Positions 1 through 4,241 of a DNA stretch of 4,241 bases are shown in pieces. Source of the DNA: a virus (taxonomy: Duplodnaviria; Heunggongvirae; Uroviricota; Caudoviricetes); the IMG/VR virus record IMGVR_UViG_2778261564_000010. One strand, written 5' to 3'. Under the pieces are notes generated by a model, which worked only from the letters and a program-made list of their open reading frames with translations, was not told where the DNA came from and made no database searches. The position numbers and the translations under genes are program-made. How positions within the stretch are numbered: position 1 is the first letter of the stretch; each line of letters opens with the position of its first letter.

Positions 1-800
1 TATTTCTCATTTACCCAGCGGCGACGTTTAGGTCGTTTCATGAAGGATTCCGGAGACTCCGGATCAACGGCAATGCTGACCACCGTCTTTTCCTGTGGTG
101 GGTTCTGTTGCTGGTGGGTGTGAGGCGGTAGCGCAATATTTTTTGTGCGCTGCTTCAGTATGCTGGTGGCGGTCTGCTCTCCCGGCACGATGTCGCTTTC
201 ACGGTACATTGAGCGGATTTTTTCCGCACGCCCCCCCAGCGAACGACGTAATACCGCTTCCGGTAGCGCGTCCGCCACCTGATTGCGGACCGCCCACCAG
301 GATAATTCAGCCAAAGATAATTCACGCTCCTGCGTACCGCTTATTGCGTGACCGATGACGTCAATCATCCATGCTGACAGGTTTTGATGAGCAAGTTGCT
401 CGAGTGATTCGGATGTCTGGTCACGCAGCTGGTTGTCGCAGTGCCAGCACAACACCATTGCGCCGGTACCATAACGGTGAATGACAGTTTCGCTGTGATG
501 ATAATCGCCGTGTGGCCACTGGCAGGATTTAATATGGCGCAACAGCCAGTCAGACAATGCACCAGCACCACCAGCAGCACGAATCACCCGTGCGTTACTG
601 AAAAACGGCAGCAATGTTTTGTCTTCCACCAGCGGCTGGCGAACGGCAGGAACGACCCCGGACGGCAGATTACGCATGCTTTTCGGTTCAGGCTCCACCA
701 GCACTCTAGGGTTATGAAATACTTGCATGGATTCACGACCCGGCCTAAGGACCACCAGCCCGAGTTCCGGTACCAGAACAGGTCGAAGTAATATCCGCAC
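1..800 (-). CDS. Prophage protein, DUF968/YdfU-like (N-terminal part; 3' end lies beyond window start)
   Basis: Hand translation of the minus strand gives an uninterrupted frame from GTG 800-798 to position 1 with no stop (VRILLRPVLVPELGL...MRNLPSGVV...CQWPHGDYHH...CWHCDNQL...KRPKRRRWVNEK). GGAGG lies 4 nt upstream of the GTG, immediately after the stop of the upstream ORF. Alternative in-frame starts are ATG 872, 728 and 677. It is missing from the ORF track because it has no in-window stop. Family assignment is from memory of YdfU-like proteins next to hokD in Qin-type prophages and is unverified. Confidence 0.6.
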   Translation of the reverse strand, partial: MRILLRPVLVPELGLVVLRPGRESMQVFHNPRVLVEPEPKSMRNLPSGVVPAVRQPLVEDKTLLPFFSNARVIRAAGGAGALSDWLLRHIKSCQWPHGDYHHSETVIHRYGTGAMVLCWHCDNQLRDQTSESLEQLAHQNLSAWMIDVIGHAISGTQERELSLAELSWWAVRNQVADALPEAVLRRSLGGRAEKIRSMYRESDIVPGEQTATSILKQRTKNIALPPHTHQQQNPPQEKTVVSIAVDPESPESFMKRPKRRRWVNEK

Positions 801-801
801 G

Positions 802-1074
802 TTACCTCCAGATGCGTTGCTGGAATGTGCGGGATGGGCGCGGTGAGCGTTCGGAATAAGGGAGCCTGACATAGATTATCCAGTGACGATAATCGAGGCT
901 GAGGGCTTTCTTAATCTCGTATCCGCGTCTGCGGTAGTTATGAATTAGCCATTCGGCCTGTTCTTCAGTACATGGTGGGTGTTGGTACCAGTCGGTTTTA
1001 AATGCGTGTGAACGCCGCCCATGCCGGATGGCAAGGTCGGTATCAGAATTGTGAAATTTGGTTTTGTGCGCCAT
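802..1074 (-). CDS. Hypothetical prophage protein (90 aa)
   Basis: ATG-initiated ORF from the track (MAHKTKFHNSDTDLAIRHGRRSHAFKTDWYQHPPCTEEQAEWLIHNYRRRGYEIKK...). Its TAA stop at 802-804 lies 1 nt from the GTG start of the downstream long ORF, an operon-like junction. Its own SD is weak (GAGAAAAC) and the C-terminal 15 residues are R/P/S-rich, so the true extent is uncertain. Confidence 0.45.
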   Translation of the reverse strand: MAHKTKFHNSDTDLAIRHGRRSHAFKTDWYQHPPCTEEQAEWLIHNYRRRGYEIKKALSLDYRHWIIYVRLPYSERSPRPSRTFQQRIWR

Positions 1075-1140
1075 CTGTTTTCTCTACTGGCGCAGCAGGT
1101 GTCAGGTGTTCAGGCTGACGTGCGAATTGTAAACCAGAAT

Positions 1141-1173
1141 GCCAGGAAAAAACAAAACCCGCCGAAGCGGGTT
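1141..1173 (-). terminator. Rho-independent terminator at the 3' end of the hok transcript
   Basis: On the minus strand: 7-bp GC-rich stem (AACCCGC / GCGGGTT) with a UUCG tetraloop, followed directly by TTGTTTTTTCC. Confidence 0.6.
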
Positions 1174-1177
1174 AAGT

Positions 1178-1192
1178 GCGGGTGCGTTGAGG
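1178..1192 (-). promoter_or_regulatory. hok mRNA 3' fold-back element (fbi-like), complementary to the 5' end of the transcript
   Basis: Minus-strand 5'-CCTCAACGCACCCGC-3' is the near-perfect complement (one bulge) of minus-strand 5'-GCGGGTGCTTGAGG-3' at 1568-1555. This long-range 5'/3' pairing is the known hallmark of hok mRNAs. Confidence 0.5.
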
Positions 1193-1241
1193 ATGCCTGA
1201 CTCATCAGAGGTGGCGAGGGATTTCCCCCTCGCCTGGTCTC

Positions 1242-1397
1242 TTACTCCTCAGGTTCGTAAGCTGTGAAGACAGCGACCTCCGTCTGGCCGGTTCGGATTC
1301 GTACCTCGCAGAGGTCTTTCCTCGTTACCAGTGCCGTCACTATGACGGTTAAACAGATGACGATCAGGGCGATTAACATCGCCTTTTGCTGCTTCAT
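1242..1397 (-). CDS. hok: Hok/Gef-family type I toxin (HokD/RelF-like), 51 aa
   Basis: Hand translation: MKQQKAMLIALIVICLTVIVTALVTRKDLCEVRIRTGQTEVAVFTAYEPEE, ATG 1397 to TAA 1242-1244. SD AAGGAG lies 8 nt upstream. The protein matches my memory of E. coli HokD (RelF) and has the hydrophobic N-terminal helix and conserved Cys of the family. It is absent from the ORF track only because it is shorter than the track cutoff. Confidence 0.9.
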   Translation of the reverse strand: MKQQKAMLIALIVICLTVIVTALVTRKDLCEVRIRTGQTEVAVFTAYEPEE

Positions 1398-1453
1398 AGC
1401 CTGCTTCTCCTTGACCTTTCGGTCCGTAAGAGGCTAATCTCTATGTGTCGCAT
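1394..1453 (-). CDS. mok: mok-like leader ORF (19 codons), translationally coupled to hok
   Basis: ATG at 1453-1451 preceded by GAGG at the spacing seen in the plasmid R1 mok region. The frame ends in TGA overlapping the hok ATG as ATGA. Inferred by analogy with the R1 hok/mok/sok architecture; the ORF is much shorter than R1 mok. Confidence 0.4.
   Translation of the reverse strand: MRHIEISLLRTERSRRSRL
1411..1440 (+). promoter_or_regulatory. Candidate sok promoter
   Basis: Plus strand TTGACC (1411-1416), 17-18 nt spacer, then CTAATC/TAATCT (1434-1440). The -35 overlaps the complement of the hok SD, as in R1 (TTGCGC-N17-TATCCT, from memory). Confidence 0.45.
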
Positions 1454-1520
1454 AGATATGGCCTCAGATTAATGTTAAGCGTCTTGCAGGACGCGTAATG
1501 TTAACTGGGGCTTTTCTCTA
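1447..1520 (+). ncRNA. sok: Sok-like antisense RNA (approximate ends)
   Basis: Lies opposite the mok translation-initiation region. The 3' part contains a nested hairpin (GTTAA-GCGTC ... GACGC-...-TTAAC) followed by GGGGCTTTTCTCT, similar to what I recall of the R1 Sok 3' end. Boundaries are inferred, not measured. Confidence 0.4.
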
Positions 1521-1554
1521 TCTGCCTTTTGGTGTTCATGCCTGAGACAGATAG

Positions 1555-1601
1555 CCTCAAGCACCCGCAGTCATTCTACTTAACTAAGATTTCCCCGCAA
1601 A
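1555..1601 (-). promoter_or_regulatory. Candidate hok promoter and 5' tac-like element
   Basis: Minus strand TTGCGG (-35, plus 1596-1601), 16 nt spacer, TAGAAT (-10, plus 1574-1579), then GCGGGTGCTTGAGGCT (plus 1555-1568). The latter resembles the R1 hok mRNA 5' end GGCGCUUGAGGCU and is complementary to the 3' element at 1178-1192. Confidence 0.45.
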
Positions 1602-1655
1602 CCGTTTTTGTCCGGCACAGTAAATATCCAACTAAACCAATGGCGTTCGCTGTAT

Positions 1656-1835
1656 TTACCGCCAGTATTCAATGCACATGACCGCCATGAACACCCCTAA
1701 AAAAAGGGCATTTATATGTCCAAACATTAATATCAAAACATCAACTTTTTCCATATACCTTGCTGTGAAGATGATGGGCATACATGATGCGAACAACCAG
1801 AACGCAACAAACAAAAACTGCAATGCGTTTTTCAT
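1656..1835 (-). CDS. Possible small two-helix membrane protein (59 aa)
   Basis: Internal ATG at 1835 of the 1656..1874 track ORF (which begins at a GTG) is preceded by AGGGGGAATA. Translation is MKNALQFLFVAFWLFASCMPIIFTARYMEKVDVLILMFGHINALFLGVFMAVMCIEYWR, with two hydrophobic segments. The region is very AT-rich, so hydrophobic composition may be an artefact. Confidence 0.3.
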   Translation of the reverse strand: MKNALQFLFVAFWLFASCMPIIFTARYMEKVDVLILMFGHINALFLGVFMAVMCIEYWR

Positions 1836-2005
1836 TATTCCCCCTACAATCAATGTGCAATAACATTTAAACACACCTCAATTTAGCCGGACATATAAAT
1901 ATCTAAACCAGAAAAAATCACTTACATAGCGTTACAAACTCTTTAGTCTAAATATTCATCGTAAAACATTCCCCATACTTATCAGCCCGTTCTGCGCCAG
2001 GTAGC

Positions 2006-2293
2006 TCATTGCCTTATCTGGGAATCTGTAATCAGGTTTCCGGATGCTGGTGGATTTTCGCATTTTAGTTGTTCATAAAAGTGCACAGCTTTAACCAGTT
2101 CTTCTGATGTAACCGGGACTGGCGGGGCAGTGAATAAGGCCTGAATTTCATAGTTCGGCCTGTCGTTACAATCCTCTTTTTTCGGTACATATTTCCAGTC
2201 ACCAGACCACTACTTCCCCTGAAAGTCCGTAACGCCTTTTTTTCACGTAGCGATATCGCCATGCCACTGTTTTTGCTTGCCCCGCCGTTTCAT
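2006..2293 (-). pseudogene. Decayed reading frame with two in-frame stops
   Basis: One minus-strand frame starts at ATG 2293 (AGGAAGG upstream): MKRRGKQKQWHGDIAT-TGA(2243-2245)-KKGVTDFQGK-TAG(2210-2212)-WSGDWKYVPKKEDCNDRPNYEIQALFTAPPVPVTSEELVKAVHFYEQLKCENPPASGNLITDSQIRQ-TGA(2006-2008). The long 3' segment looks protein-like but has no usable start codon. Confidence 0.3.
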
Positions 2294-2317
2294 GCCCTTC
2301 CTGATAATTAACCTCGC

Positions 2318-2494
2318 TCATTCATCGCCCCACTCATCACAATATGCTTCGACCGGAGTTTTTCCTGCTTCATAATCATCACGCCATGCTTCAGCATCAG
2401 CAGCACTGCCACCACGTAACTCTGCATAGTCCATTAACAGTTCATGCCATTCTTCAAAACCGACGTTGTATTTAGTTGAACCAAAATCAGCCAT
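2318..2494 (-). CDS. Small acidic protein (58 aa), unknown function
   Basis: Hand translation: MADFGSTKYNVGFEEWHELLMDYAELRGGSAADAEAWRDDYEAGKTPVEAYCDEWGDE. The ATG overlaps the stop of the upstream gene (AAATGGCTGA) and GAGGAAG lies upstream. Absent from the track because it is under 60 aa. Weak motif similarity (KYN near the N-terminus, YCxxW near the C-terminus) to the 70-aa protein at 3767..3979. Confidence 0.5.
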   Translation of the reverse strand: MADFGSTKYNVGFEEWHELLMDYAELRGGSAADAEAWRDDYEAGKTPVEAYCDEWGDE

Positions 2495-2669
2495 TTTGTT
2501 CTTCCTCTTCGTCTTTTATTTCGTGATATGAGTAATTGCAGTAGTTAAAGAAAATATCTTTTGCTTCGTCATGTATTTCATCAGGCGTCGCATCATCATC
2601 CACTTCGAATTCATCCTCGAAATCTCCACCGGCTATTCCCGTTTCAATAATTATTTTAAACTTTCGCAT
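2487..2669 (-). CDS. Small, strongly acidic protein (60 aa), unknown function
   Basis: Track ORF with ATG start: MRKFKIIIETGIAGGDFEDEFEVDDDATPDEIHDEAKDIFFNYCNYSYHEIKDEEEEQNG, about one third D/E. The start codon sits 7 nt downstream of the H hairpin element. Coupled to the downstream 58-aa ORF. Confidence 0.6.
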   Translation of the reverse strand: MRKFKIIIETGIAGGDFEDEFEVDDDATPDEIHDEAKDIFFNYCNYSYHEIKDEEEEQNG

Positions 2670-2676
2670 TTAACTA

Positions 2677-2697
2677 CCGCCCTTTCGGGCGGCCTCC
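2677..2697 (-). promoter_or_regulatory. H element copy 2: GGAGG plus GC hairpin with GAAA loop, immediately 5' of a start codon
   Basis: Minus strand GGAGG-CCGCCC-GAAA-GGGCGG, then 7 nt, then ATG at 2669. The 23-nt core (plus strand taccgccctttcgggcggcctcc, 2675-2697) is identical to 3739-3761. Confidence 0.6.
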
Positions 2698-2724
2698 TGA
2701 TGTTCTGAGGGTGCAGAAATCCCT

Positions 2725-2781
2725 CCGGTTAAGGATTAAATTTTTAACAGAGCTAAATTTAATTATTCAGTTCTGGATTTT
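2725..2781 (-). promoter_or_regulatory. P' element: AT-rich conserved promoter/operator-like element with dyad symmetry
   Basis: Homologous to 3987-4048 (ccggttaaggattaaattttt...aatttaattattcag versus ccagttaaggattaaatttta...aacttaattattcag). Contains inverted repeat ATTAAATTT (2735-2743) / AAATTTAAT (2755-2763) with an 11-bp spacer. Overlaps the stop of the upstream 118-aa gene. Confidence 0.45.
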
Positions 2782-3119
2782 GTCGCCCTGCGTATCCGCG
2801 CTTTCGCGTTACGCTCAATCTGAATTAGCTTTTCTATATTTTTTCGCCTTTCCCGCTCCTCCTGACGCAAGAGCCTTACATCATCTGCCAGTCTGGTTTC
2901 TCTTTTCGCCACAGAGAGCATCCAGTCAAATGGTTCCACAACTGCACCGCAGATTTTACAGCGGACCTGACGCTCTTTTTCGTCAACCCGGACAGAGGCG
3001 TGATGACAATATGGTCTTTCCGATGGCTCATAAAGAAAATTAACCTGATTACGAGGGTCATCCTCTTTTACCGGAAATAAAACGATATTGCTTAACTCAT
3101 CCTCTGGTTTTATTTCCAT
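2763..3119 (-). CDS. Zinc-ribbon-like protein with basic helical C-terminus (118 aa), unknown function
   Basis: Track ORF 2763..3176 begins at a GTG immediately preceded by TGA. The preferred start is ATG 3119, preceded by AAGGAGAGGAGC. Translation: MEIKPEDELSNIVLFPVKEDDPRNQVNFLYEPSERPYCHHASVRVDEKERQVRCKICGAVVEPFDWMLSVAKRETRLADDVRLLRQEERERRKNIEKLIQIERNAKARIRRATKSRTE, with a C-H-H...C-x-x-C cluster followed by an Arg/Glu/Lys-rich tail. Confidence 0.65.
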   Translation of the reverse strand: MEIKPEDELSNIVLFPVKEDDPRNQVNFLYEPSERPYCHHASVRVDEKERQVRCKICGAVVEPFDWMLSVAKRETRLADDVRLLRQEERERRKNIEKLIQIERNAKARIRRATKSRTE

Positions 3120-3240
3120 GCTCCTCTCCTTTGATGCGAATGCCAGCGGTAATTGAAGCCTGATAGCTAATTTCACTCACAGTACCGCCTCCTGAAAATT
3201 TAATGAACAATTCAATACGTTCTTTGGTAATAGTGGTCAT
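3097..3240 (-). CDS. Small protein (47 aa), unknown function; overlaps the start of the downstream gene
   Basis: ATG 3240 preceded by AAGGAG at 6 nt, overlapping the TAA of the upstream gene. Translation: MTTITKERIELFIKFSGGGTVSEISYQASITAGIRIKGEEHGNKTRG. Ends at TGA 3097-3099, 23 nt past the ATG of the downstream gene in another frame. A diverged copy of this segment exists at 4051-4164. Confidence 0.4.
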   Translation of the reverse strand: MTTITKERIELFIKFSGGGTVSEISYQASITAGIRIKGEEHGNKTRG

Positions 3241-3250
3241 GTGTTACTCC

Positions 3251-3514
3251 TTAACCCGCAGTGCTTTCAACTGATGAGGGGAACAAAATCTTTTCATCAA
3301 ACCCTGCATTCATATCATGAACAGCAACACACCAATCCATCGACGAACGATTATCAAGAGCCTCCATGATTTCATCCATGCGGCGTAGGTCATACAGGTA
3401 AATGCTTTTATCGCCAATGGTGTAAAAGCCAATTTTTTTCGGTGATGGACAGCGCTCAAGAACTTCCTGTAATTCGTTCAACCATGCCCGTTCTTTTTTT
3501 GTCAAAGTTGCCAT
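3251..3514 (-). CDS. Hypothetical protein (87 aa)
   Basis: Track ORF 3251..3604 begins at a TTG. The preferred start is ATG 3514, preceded by AAGGAA, 1 nt after the stop of the upstream gene. Translation: MATLTKKERAWLNELQEVLERCPSPKKIGFYTIGDKSIYLYDLRRMDEIMEALDNRSSMDWCVAVHDMNAGFDEKILFPSSVESTAG. Confidence 0.65.
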   Translation of the reverse strand: MATLTKKERAWLNELQEVLERCPSPKKIGFYTIGDKSIYLYDLRRMDEIMEALDNRSSMDWCVAVHDMNAGFDEKILFPSSVESTAG

Positions 3515-3515
3515 A

Positions 3516-3734
3516 TCAGTTTTCCTTATACGGATTAATTTTATTGTGCAGTGTGTTGAATGACGCCCATACCACGTCGTTATACAATTCAGTAACTGGC
3601 TCAATTATTTTCCCGATTGCCCAGACAAAAATTAGAGGGGATATCGGTATCATCAATACGATAAACAGAATGAGAAACAAAAATTCTGTCGCCCTACTTT
3701 TTTGCGGATATTCTTTTCTGAATAATGTAGTCAT
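3516..3734 (-). CDS. Small single-pass membrane protein (72 aa), unknown function
   Basis: Track ORF with ATG start, 6 nt downstream of the H hairpin element. Translation: MTTLFRKEYPQKSRATEFLFLILFIVLMIPISPLIFVWAIGKIIEPVTELYNDVVWASFNTLHNKINPYKEN, with one hydrophobic helix at about residues 17-41 flanked by charged residues. The stop is adjacent to the start of the 87-aa gene. Confidence 0.6.
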   Translation of the reverse strand: MTTLFRKEYPQKSRATEFLFLILFIVLMIPISPLIFVWAIGKIIEPVTELYNDVVWASFNTLHNKINPYKEN

Positions 3735-3740
3735 TTCTTA

Positions 3741-3761
3741 CCGCCCTTTCGGGCGGCCTCC
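3741..3761 (-). promoter_or_regulatory. H element copy 1: GGAGG plus GC hairpin with GAAA loop, immediately 5' of a start codon
   Basis: Minus strand GGAGG-CCGCCC-GAAA-GGGCGG, then 6 nt (TAAGAA), then ATG at 3734. The 23-nt core is identical to copy 2 although the flanking genes are unrelated. Confidence 0.6.
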
Positions 3762-3766
3762 CGACA

Positions 3767-3979
3767 TTAATCGTTGTGGTAACTCATGGCTTCATTTGCA
3801 GCATCAACCGGATCAACCTCCCACCAGCAATAATTTGGTGCGTTTCCTTCAGGTGTCCACGGTTCCAATTCATTTTTTGCCACATTCTCGTCGCCAGTAA
3901 TTTTAAAAATCTGCTCAGAGAATTTTTTCACCCACTCGTTATATTTTTCAGTGTTAATAATTTTCTGTGTATTTGACAT
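3767..3979 (-). CDS. Small acidic protein (70 aa), unknown function
   Basis: Track ORF with ATG start preceded by GGAGGT at about 7 nt. Translation: MSNTQKIINTEKYNEWVKKFSEQIFKITGDENVAKNELEPWTPEGNAPNYCWWEVDPVDAANEAMSYHND. Lies immediately downstream of the P element. Confidence 0.65.
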   Translation of the reverse strand: MSNTQKIINTEKYNEWVKKFSEQIFKITGDENVAKNELEPWTPEGNAPNYCWWEVDPVDAANEAMSYHND

Positions 3980-3986
3980 AGATATA

Positions 3987-4048
3987 CCTCCAGTTAAGGA
4001 TTAAATTTTATTTACAGTGCTGAACTTAATTATTCAGATTTGGATTAT
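3987..4048 (-). promoter_or_regulatory. P element: AT-rich promoter/operator-like element upstream of the 70-aa gene
   Basis: Second copy of the roughly 60-bp conserved element (see 2725-2781). Ends in the GGAGG used as SD for the ATG at 3979. Contains TGTAAATAAAAT, a possible -10-like sequence. No transcription start can be called confidently. Confidence 0.4.
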
Positions 4049-4050
4049 GC

Positions 4051-4164
4051 TTTCTCTTCACGAAGTTCCGATTGTTAATTTGGCTCACAACAGCACCTTC
4101 TGAAAATTACCCTGATAGAAAGCCAGTACACGCTGCATAGCTTCGCTCTTCCGGCACTCGCTAC
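4051..4164 (-). other. Degenerate partial third copy of the cassette, truncated by the IS
   Basis: Minus-strand ...TAATTTTCAGAAGGTGCTGTTGTGAGCCAAATTAACAATCGG... aligns with the 3180-3215 region (...AAATTTTCAGGAGGCGGTACTGTGAGTGAAATTAGCTATCAGG...) but with frame-disrupting differences, and then joins directly to sequence resembling the last codons of the 118-aa gene. No intact ORF. Confidence 0.4.
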
Positions 4165-4241
4165 TGAACCGCCCCGGGAATCCTGGAGACTAAACTCCCT
4201 GAGAAAGAGGTAAACAGGATGACTAAAAATACACGTTTTTC
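4165..4241 (+). mobile_element. IS3-family insertion sequence, left end (IS629/IS1203-like), continues beyond window
   Basis: TGAACCGCCCCGGGAATCCTGGAGACTAAACTCCCTGAGAAAGAGGTAAACAGG followed by ATGACTAAAAATACACGTTTTTC matches my memory of the IS629/IS1203 left terminal repeat and orfA start. Unverified recall. Confidence 0.7.
4219..4241 (+). CDS. IS3-family transposase OrfA, first 7 codons only
   Basis: ATG at 4219 preceded by GAGG; translation MTKNTRF... Partial at the window edge. Confidence 0.65.

Follow-up and report, generated by a model that had tools for sequence, protein, structure and literature searches.

The analysed DNA, a stretch of 4,241 nucleotides (the window), ends inside an IS629 element. 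Very probably, an E. coli or Shigella prophage of the lambdoid (Rac/Qin-like) type received this element by transposition, in the 3' part of its DUF977 gene; this degree of confidence applies to the explanation as a whole, including the consequences proposed for the prophage. Sequence comparison establishes which element is present, at which base it was inserted, which gene was hit and that the DNA to the left is intact. The disruption of the tail of an ordinary prophage DUF977 gene by IS629 belongs to a type of event that is already known and very frequent. The window ends 77 nt into the element, probably at a point where a short-read assembly broke at a multicopy repeat: the visible part of the IS is exactly 77 nt long, a common k-mer of de Bruijn assemblers, which suggests such a break. 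The features around the junction are compiled in Table 1.

Table 1. Features at and beside the IS629 junction (window coordinates).
Feature	Position	Strand	Basis
Left end of IS629-type element (IS3 family), rest off the window	4165..4241	+	77/77 and 75/77 matches; divergence of homologues at 4165
Left terminal inverted repeat (IRL) TGAACCGCCCCGGGAATCCTGGAGA	4165..4189	+	Right ends, as reverse complement, agree at 22-23 of 25 positions
Start of transposase orfA, ATG at 4219, MTKNTRF...	4219..4241	+	Translation; the same bases open the annotated 28RC1 CDS
Predicted copy of the target-site duplication, CTAC (TAC if 3 bp)	4161..4164		Expected from CCAC of 28RC1 and from PMC3271280
Detached 3' end of DUF977: 2 nt of Cys115, 25 codons, stop TGA (4085-4087)	4085..4164	-	Translation, RefSeq, Pfam
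Intergenic, from DUF977 stop to 70-aa ORF (3767-3979); holds repeat 3980-4049	3980..4084	-	Collinear with IS-free homologues

Boundary, identity and distribution of the IS629 left end

The first base of the element is position 4165 (TGAACCGCCCCGGGAATCCTGGAGAC...), and alignment with both IS-free and IS-bearing homologues makes this start exact to the base: The IS-free strain E. coli E2863 (L002) agrees with the window at every base as far as ...CACTCGCTAC (4164) and has unrelated sequence beginning with 4165, and the alignment with E. coli 28RC1 (L001) runs on past 4164 into a gene annotated as 'IS3 family transposase, programmed frameshift'. The 77 nt between this point and the window end (TGAACCGCCCCGGGAATCCTGGAGACTAAACTCCCTGAGAAAGAGGTAAACAGGATGACTAAAAATACACGTTTTTC) comprise the left inverted repeat, the leader and the first seven codons of orfA. 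The inverted repeat starts with 5'-TG and is the same as that of the full-length copies; a GAGG Shine-Dalgarno motif (4207-4210) is positioned ahead of the orfA start codon, and the gene reads rightwards, out of the window. In the 28RC1 copy, whose left end is identical to that of the window, OrfA carries an HTH_Tnp_1 domain and OrfB an rve domain, and a programmed frameshift is annotated.

All 77 visible bases are shared with the IS629 copies of 28RC1 and of phage JLK-2012 (annotated as 'IS629 transposase'; phage host O55:H7 DEC5E), and 75 of the 77 with the O157-type IS629 of phage PPompW_EH2201 (LC567828.1; annotated as 'insertion sequence: IS3 family IS629'), a comparison that covers 77 of the 1310 nt, i.e. 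6%, of IS629. The full-length copies of JLK-2012 and 28RC1 comprise 1310 bp each and are 99.3% identical to one another and approximately 95% identical to the O157-type copy. According to the ISfinder convention, isoforms share at least 95% nucleotide identity; IS1203, IS1203v and IS3411 are isoforms of IS629, which was originally described from Shigella sonnei and is abundant in EHEC. Two bases in the window are informative with respect to the sub-type, C at IS position 33 and A at position 69, and group the element with the copies of JLK-2012 (O55:H7) and 28RC1. The divergence observed between the sub-types fits the published split of IS629, in which sub-types differ by 55-60 nt (4-5%) (PMC3271280). 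The earlier note on this DNA, which was made from the letters alone, had proposed an IS3-family, IS629-type left end at about 4165; the alignment break with the IS-free homologues proves this position exact, the matches to annotated IS629 copies bear out the element call, and in the database comparison, on which that call had been made to depend, the terminal sequence does match an IS3-family left end.

With an 82-nt query composed of the junction and the IS part, 23,432 places were found in 3,575 of the 5,426 complete E. coli genomes (66%), so that the IS match is beyond chance; the copies per genome amount to a median of 3 and occupy up to 50 places. The IS629-end query furthermore matched 2,920 plasmid records, mostly from Escherichia and Shigella, and 174 phage records, mostly from Stx-converting phages. 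In the E. coli genomes as well as in the plasmid and phage records, the IS629-type ends are multicopy, dispersed and surrounded by unrelated flanks. The suggestion in the earlier note that an element abundant in EHEC and Shigella hints at the host background is thus borne out insofar as E. coli, Stx phages and Shigella plasmids very often contain IS629-type ends; as a marker of pathotype, however, it is weak, since an element present in 66% of the complete E. coli genomes carries little information in this respect. Lambdoid prophages are a typical site of IS629, 62% of whose O157 copies are located in prophages (PMC3271280). Among 185,579 species-representative genomes, the exact IS-end variant was matched solely by a 546-bp contig of Asaia platycodi JCM 25414 (L025, NZ_BAKW01000035.1; exact 53-nt match to an IS629 left-end variant at 365-417); this match is uninformative and is probably an E. 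coli contamination of the draft assembly.

The interrupted DUF977 gene and the prophage segment to its left

The minus strand directly adjoining the element reads ...SECRKSEAMQRVLAFYQGNFQKVLL* and is identical to the C-terminus of an intact 140-aa protein from IS-free genomes. The intact homologue matches Pfam DUF977 (PF06163) over the whole model (E=5.3e-31), and the RefSeq annotation of this stretch in IS-free genomes is 'DUF977 family protein'. Within the 140-codon gene, the insertion separates the first base of codon Cys115 from the second (T/GT, the slash denoting the insertion point).

In 69 complete E. coli genomes, window positions 1-4164 are present as a single collinear block of 97-98.4% identity that is followed directly by the rest of DUF977, and a deletion at the junction was observed in none of these IS-free genomes (0/69); an NCTC strain with an intact DUF977 (L015) shares 99.9% identity with the window over 1744-4167. 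The minus-strand gene order in the IS-free genomes starts with cro/ydaS, ydaT, an O-like HTH protein, a DnaC/IstB-like ATPase, DUF1627 and DUF977, and proceeds with the small ORFs (70 aa, DUF4014, 87 aa, 47 aa, 118 aa, DUF7167, 58 aa), hokD/sok, DUF968, RusA and Q. Based on this collinearity, the small-ORF region ends naturally at approximately 4084, i.e. at the DUF977 stop, with the IS inside the next gene upstream, and everything to the left of the IS is intact, with no loss on the visible side. Exact-protein look-ups of two window ORFs led only to IS-free or differently rearranged loci.

Several features of the segment to the left were recorded in addition. At 1956-2321 (minus strand), ORFs are broken into pieces of 40 aa and 65 aa; the counterpart in the IS-free locus L004 (6956-7321) is a RefSeq frameshifted pseudogene with an internal stop, and the decay is therefore older than the IS insertion. 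A complete hok/sok type I toxin-antitoxin locus occupies 1242-1566 (minus strand), with a 51-aa HokD ORF (1242-1397; Pfam HOK_GEF at 1.2e-23) and a match to the Rfam sok model (1395-1566; 106.7 bits, gathering score 59). Just downstream of hokD (1152-1233, minus strand), a weak match to the Rfam isrK sRNA (26 bits, E = 0.01) remains below the gathering score of 50 and may be due to chance. An element of 26 nt (TACCGCCCTTTCGGGCGGCCTCC[T/C]GA) is present in two copies of 96% identity at 2675-2700 and 3739-3764; it folds into a GC hairpin capped by a tetraloop and not followed by a T-run, and on the minus strand it separates a GGAGG from the ATG in front of both the DUF7167 and the DUF4014 ORF. 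In this position it could draw Shine-Dalgarno sequence and start codon close to each other or make the mRNA more stable. Rfam revealed no RNA family in 4051-4241, and no significant RNA structure was detected in the intergenic 3980-4090 (z = +1.5).

Related insertions in DUF977 and the origin of the junction

The closest counterpart of the junction is present in E. coli 28RC1 (NZ_CP015020.1, region 328158-329505), where IS629 of the same sub-type is inserted in DUF977 in the same orientation and at the same phosphodiester bond. This insertion is a simple one: It comprises 1310 bp, is bordered at both ends by a 4-bp CCAC duplication and is accompanied by no deletion. The 28RC1 allele of DUF977, however, differs from that of the window at 11 of 81 flanking bases (~14%), one of these within the duplicated target (CCAC versus CTAC in the window), and the genes downstream include DUF551 in place of the 70-aa/DUF4014 module of the window. 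Differences between the two alleles extend as close as 3 nt to the IS, and the base seen in the duplication is the one proper to its allele; the insertions of 28RC1 and the window must therefore be independent. In nine poultry E. coli strains (e.g. NZ_CP148493.1, NZ_CP148426.1), IS629 is likewise located in DUF977, here in a Qin-like prophage remnant and in the same orientation, but displaced by 14 bp in the 3' direction (towards the stop of the gene, to the left in the window), with a TTC duplication; the element belongs to the other sub-type (identity of 98.4% with the O157-type copy and of 95.6% with that of 28RC1). In all of these DUF977::IS629 insertions, the left end of the IS points towards the 3' end of DUF977. 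One of the poultry strains (L005, NZ_CP148426.1; 4059-7638) carries a group II intron, with an ltrA reverse transcriptase/maturase, within its DUF977-borne IS629; in sister strains, L006 among them, the 1310-bp IS at this site is uninterrupted.

Megablast searches of the 5,426 complete E. coli genomes with the left and a synthetic right junction revealed junction-spanning matches only in 28RC1 and the nine poultry strains, and the combination of the window's DUF977 allele with the IS was absent from these genomes. The exact junction was not found among the phage records by megablast with the left junction, and a search for the exact junction pattern gave no match in the GTDB species representatives, IMG/VR or the JGI metagenome contigs.

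By analogy with its family, the element would have arrived by copy-out-paste-in transposition via a circular intermediate, and it is expected to be full-length (1310 bp) and to have generated a duplication of 3-4 bp (TAC or CTAC). The second copy of the duplication would be situated after the right IS end, outside the window, and the rest of DUF977 would follow there as (C)TAC-AGATTATG...; the right junction predicted for a simple insertion accordingly reads ...GGGGCGGTTCA immediately followed by (C)TACAGATTATG.... Target-site duplications of IS629 are 3-4 bp long (PMC3271280), and those found at other copies are CCAC (28RC1), TTC (L005, L006), TAC (JLK-2012) and TAA (LC567828.1). Both the copy-out-paste-in pathway of the IS3 family and the excision of IS629 promoted by the IS-excision enhancer (IEE) are described in the literature.

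The DNA to the right of the element lies outside the window, and the IS could instead mark a rearrangement, in which IS629-IS629 recombination or an adjacent deletion caused by IS/IEE removed or moved the 5' part of DUF977 together with the replication and immunity genes and left a truncated prophage. The copy numbers given above would provide partners for such an event, IS-rich Shigella-like loci (L008, L009, L014) carry the same prophage segment broken up beside IS1/IS3 copies, and deletions caused by IS629/IEE are reported (PMC9943667). On the other hand, the insertion of 28RC1 and all nine insertions at the -14 site continue into DUF977 past the right end of the IS, with the duplication present, and no deletion is seen on the visible side of the junction; a rearrangement is therefore considered unlikely.

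Considerably less probable is the possibility that the visible bases represent a solo left-end fragment of IS629 remaining after a deletion, or that the junction is an artefact of assembly at a repeat. The equality of the 77 visible nt with a common assembler k-mer is compatible with an artefact, and partial copies of IS629 are known, as its sites have been counted as 'complete or partial' (PMC3271280). However, the terminus is canonical (TG...) and coincides with the bond used by the bona fide full-length insertion of 28RC1, and a false join produced by assembly would be unlikely to hit base 1 of the inverted repeat precisely.

The earlier note had interpreted the junction as the truncation of a repeat-bounded cassette array, in which the IS abuts a degenerate cassette copy, may have eliminated cassettes or a regulator located upstream and may supply an outward promoter, which could then act on the cassettes that are left. 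Short repeats do exist in the window: 4070-4108 resembles 3162-3200 (39 nt at 77%), the only internal resemblance of the segment abutting the IS, and 3980-4049 resembles 2715-2782 (81-90%). The DUF977 end of 28RC1 and its downstream spacer (L001 4939-5013) match window positions 3125-3200 at 96%, which identifies the copy at 3162-3200 as a relic of the 3' end of a 28RC1-type DUF977 allele; the repeat at 2715-2782 is made up of the last part of the 118-aa ORF together with the following spacer, which includes a Shine-Dalgarno sequence. Judged by their sequences, the repeats look like conserved gene-boundary sequences, the sites of module exchange in lambdoid phages. A degenerate cassette at the IS border is ruled out, as the neighbour of the IS is the authentic DUF977 C-terminus in collinear arrangement with the IS-free genomes. 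Since the comparison with IS-free homologous prophages that the earlier note had called for reveals DUF977 and not further cassettes to the right of 4164 in all 69 genomes, positions 1-4164 are collinear, the insertion at the identical site in 28RC1 occurred without deletion and no promoter-like site is present on either strand, the truncation of a cassette array is extremely improbable.

Predicted consequences for expression, and target preference

In the simple insertion favored here, the transposase gene is oriented opposite to the minus-strand early-right operon of the phage. The DUF977 product would be cut after residue 115 and extended by approximately 13 IS-encoded residues, as read from the right end of the 28RC1 copy; on the side of the detached 3' end, stop codons of the IS end in the DUF977 frame preclude a fusion protein reading from the IS into the remnant. 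In consequence of the insertion, about 1.3 kb of untranslated antisense IS would be placed between the early promoter and the small ORFs and Q, and Rho-dependent polarity would be expected to lower the transcription of these downstream genes, which would contribute to decay of the prophage. For the nin-like genes located downstream and for Q, the polar effect that the earlier note had raised is a plausible prediction; phage antitermination, should it be active, might carry transcription through the IS. In the 28RC1 copy, the terminator-like sites, one of which is located on the operon strand, are within chance (3 versus 1.3 +/- 1.2 expected).

The outward promoter considered in the earlier note finds no counterpart, as neither positions 3900-4241 nor the complete 28RC1 copy contain a sigma-70-like site on either strand. 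In the IS3 family, the outward-facing -35 element is located in the right end and not in the left (IS911/IS2/IS3), and the left end is not known to carry an outward promoter in this family; an outward promoter acting on the window genes is thus unlikely. If polarity on Q occurs, the insertion may leave the prophage defective in late gene expression, which bears on its inducibility. The disruption may be reversible in strains with IEE, in which IS629 is reported to be excisable. For the annotation of the contig, it is relevant that it probably broke at a multicopy IS, that DUF977 is disrupted and that the small-ORF region to the left is complete.

IS629 is reported to have no recognisable target sequence (PMC3271280), and its target choice has been described as unknown in the literature; the recurrent use of a few DUF977 bases therefore suggests a small local hot spot. 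That the 3' part of DUF977 is a genuine, orientation-specific hot spot of IS629 is proposed only tentatively, on the basis of three independent events, two of them at one bond in alleles ~14% apart and the third 14 bp away. If true, it would provide a handle on IS629 targeting, e.g. by local DNA structure, by transcription or replication of the early operon or by a bound protein. The recurrent and orientation-consistent use of these positions is a minor but concrete observation on the target preference of this element. IS911 has been reported to be drawn to targets that resemble its own inverted repeat; a resemblance of the DUF977 target to the IS ends was considered and rejected, as the best local alignment scored 15 versus 14.5 +/- 2.1 in shuffled sequences (+/-60 nt).

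Comparison with known elements

With respect to IS629, the left inverted repeat, the leader and the orfA start of the window match at 97-100%, and there is no difference in kind. The paradigms of the IS3 family, IS911, IS2 and IS3, are different elements, and the likeness to them consists in the mechanism expected for the family: OrfAB is produced by -1 frameshifting, transposition proceeds by copy-out-paste-in through a circle, and the promoter formed at the circle junction combines an outward -35 element in the right end with an inward -10 element in the left end.
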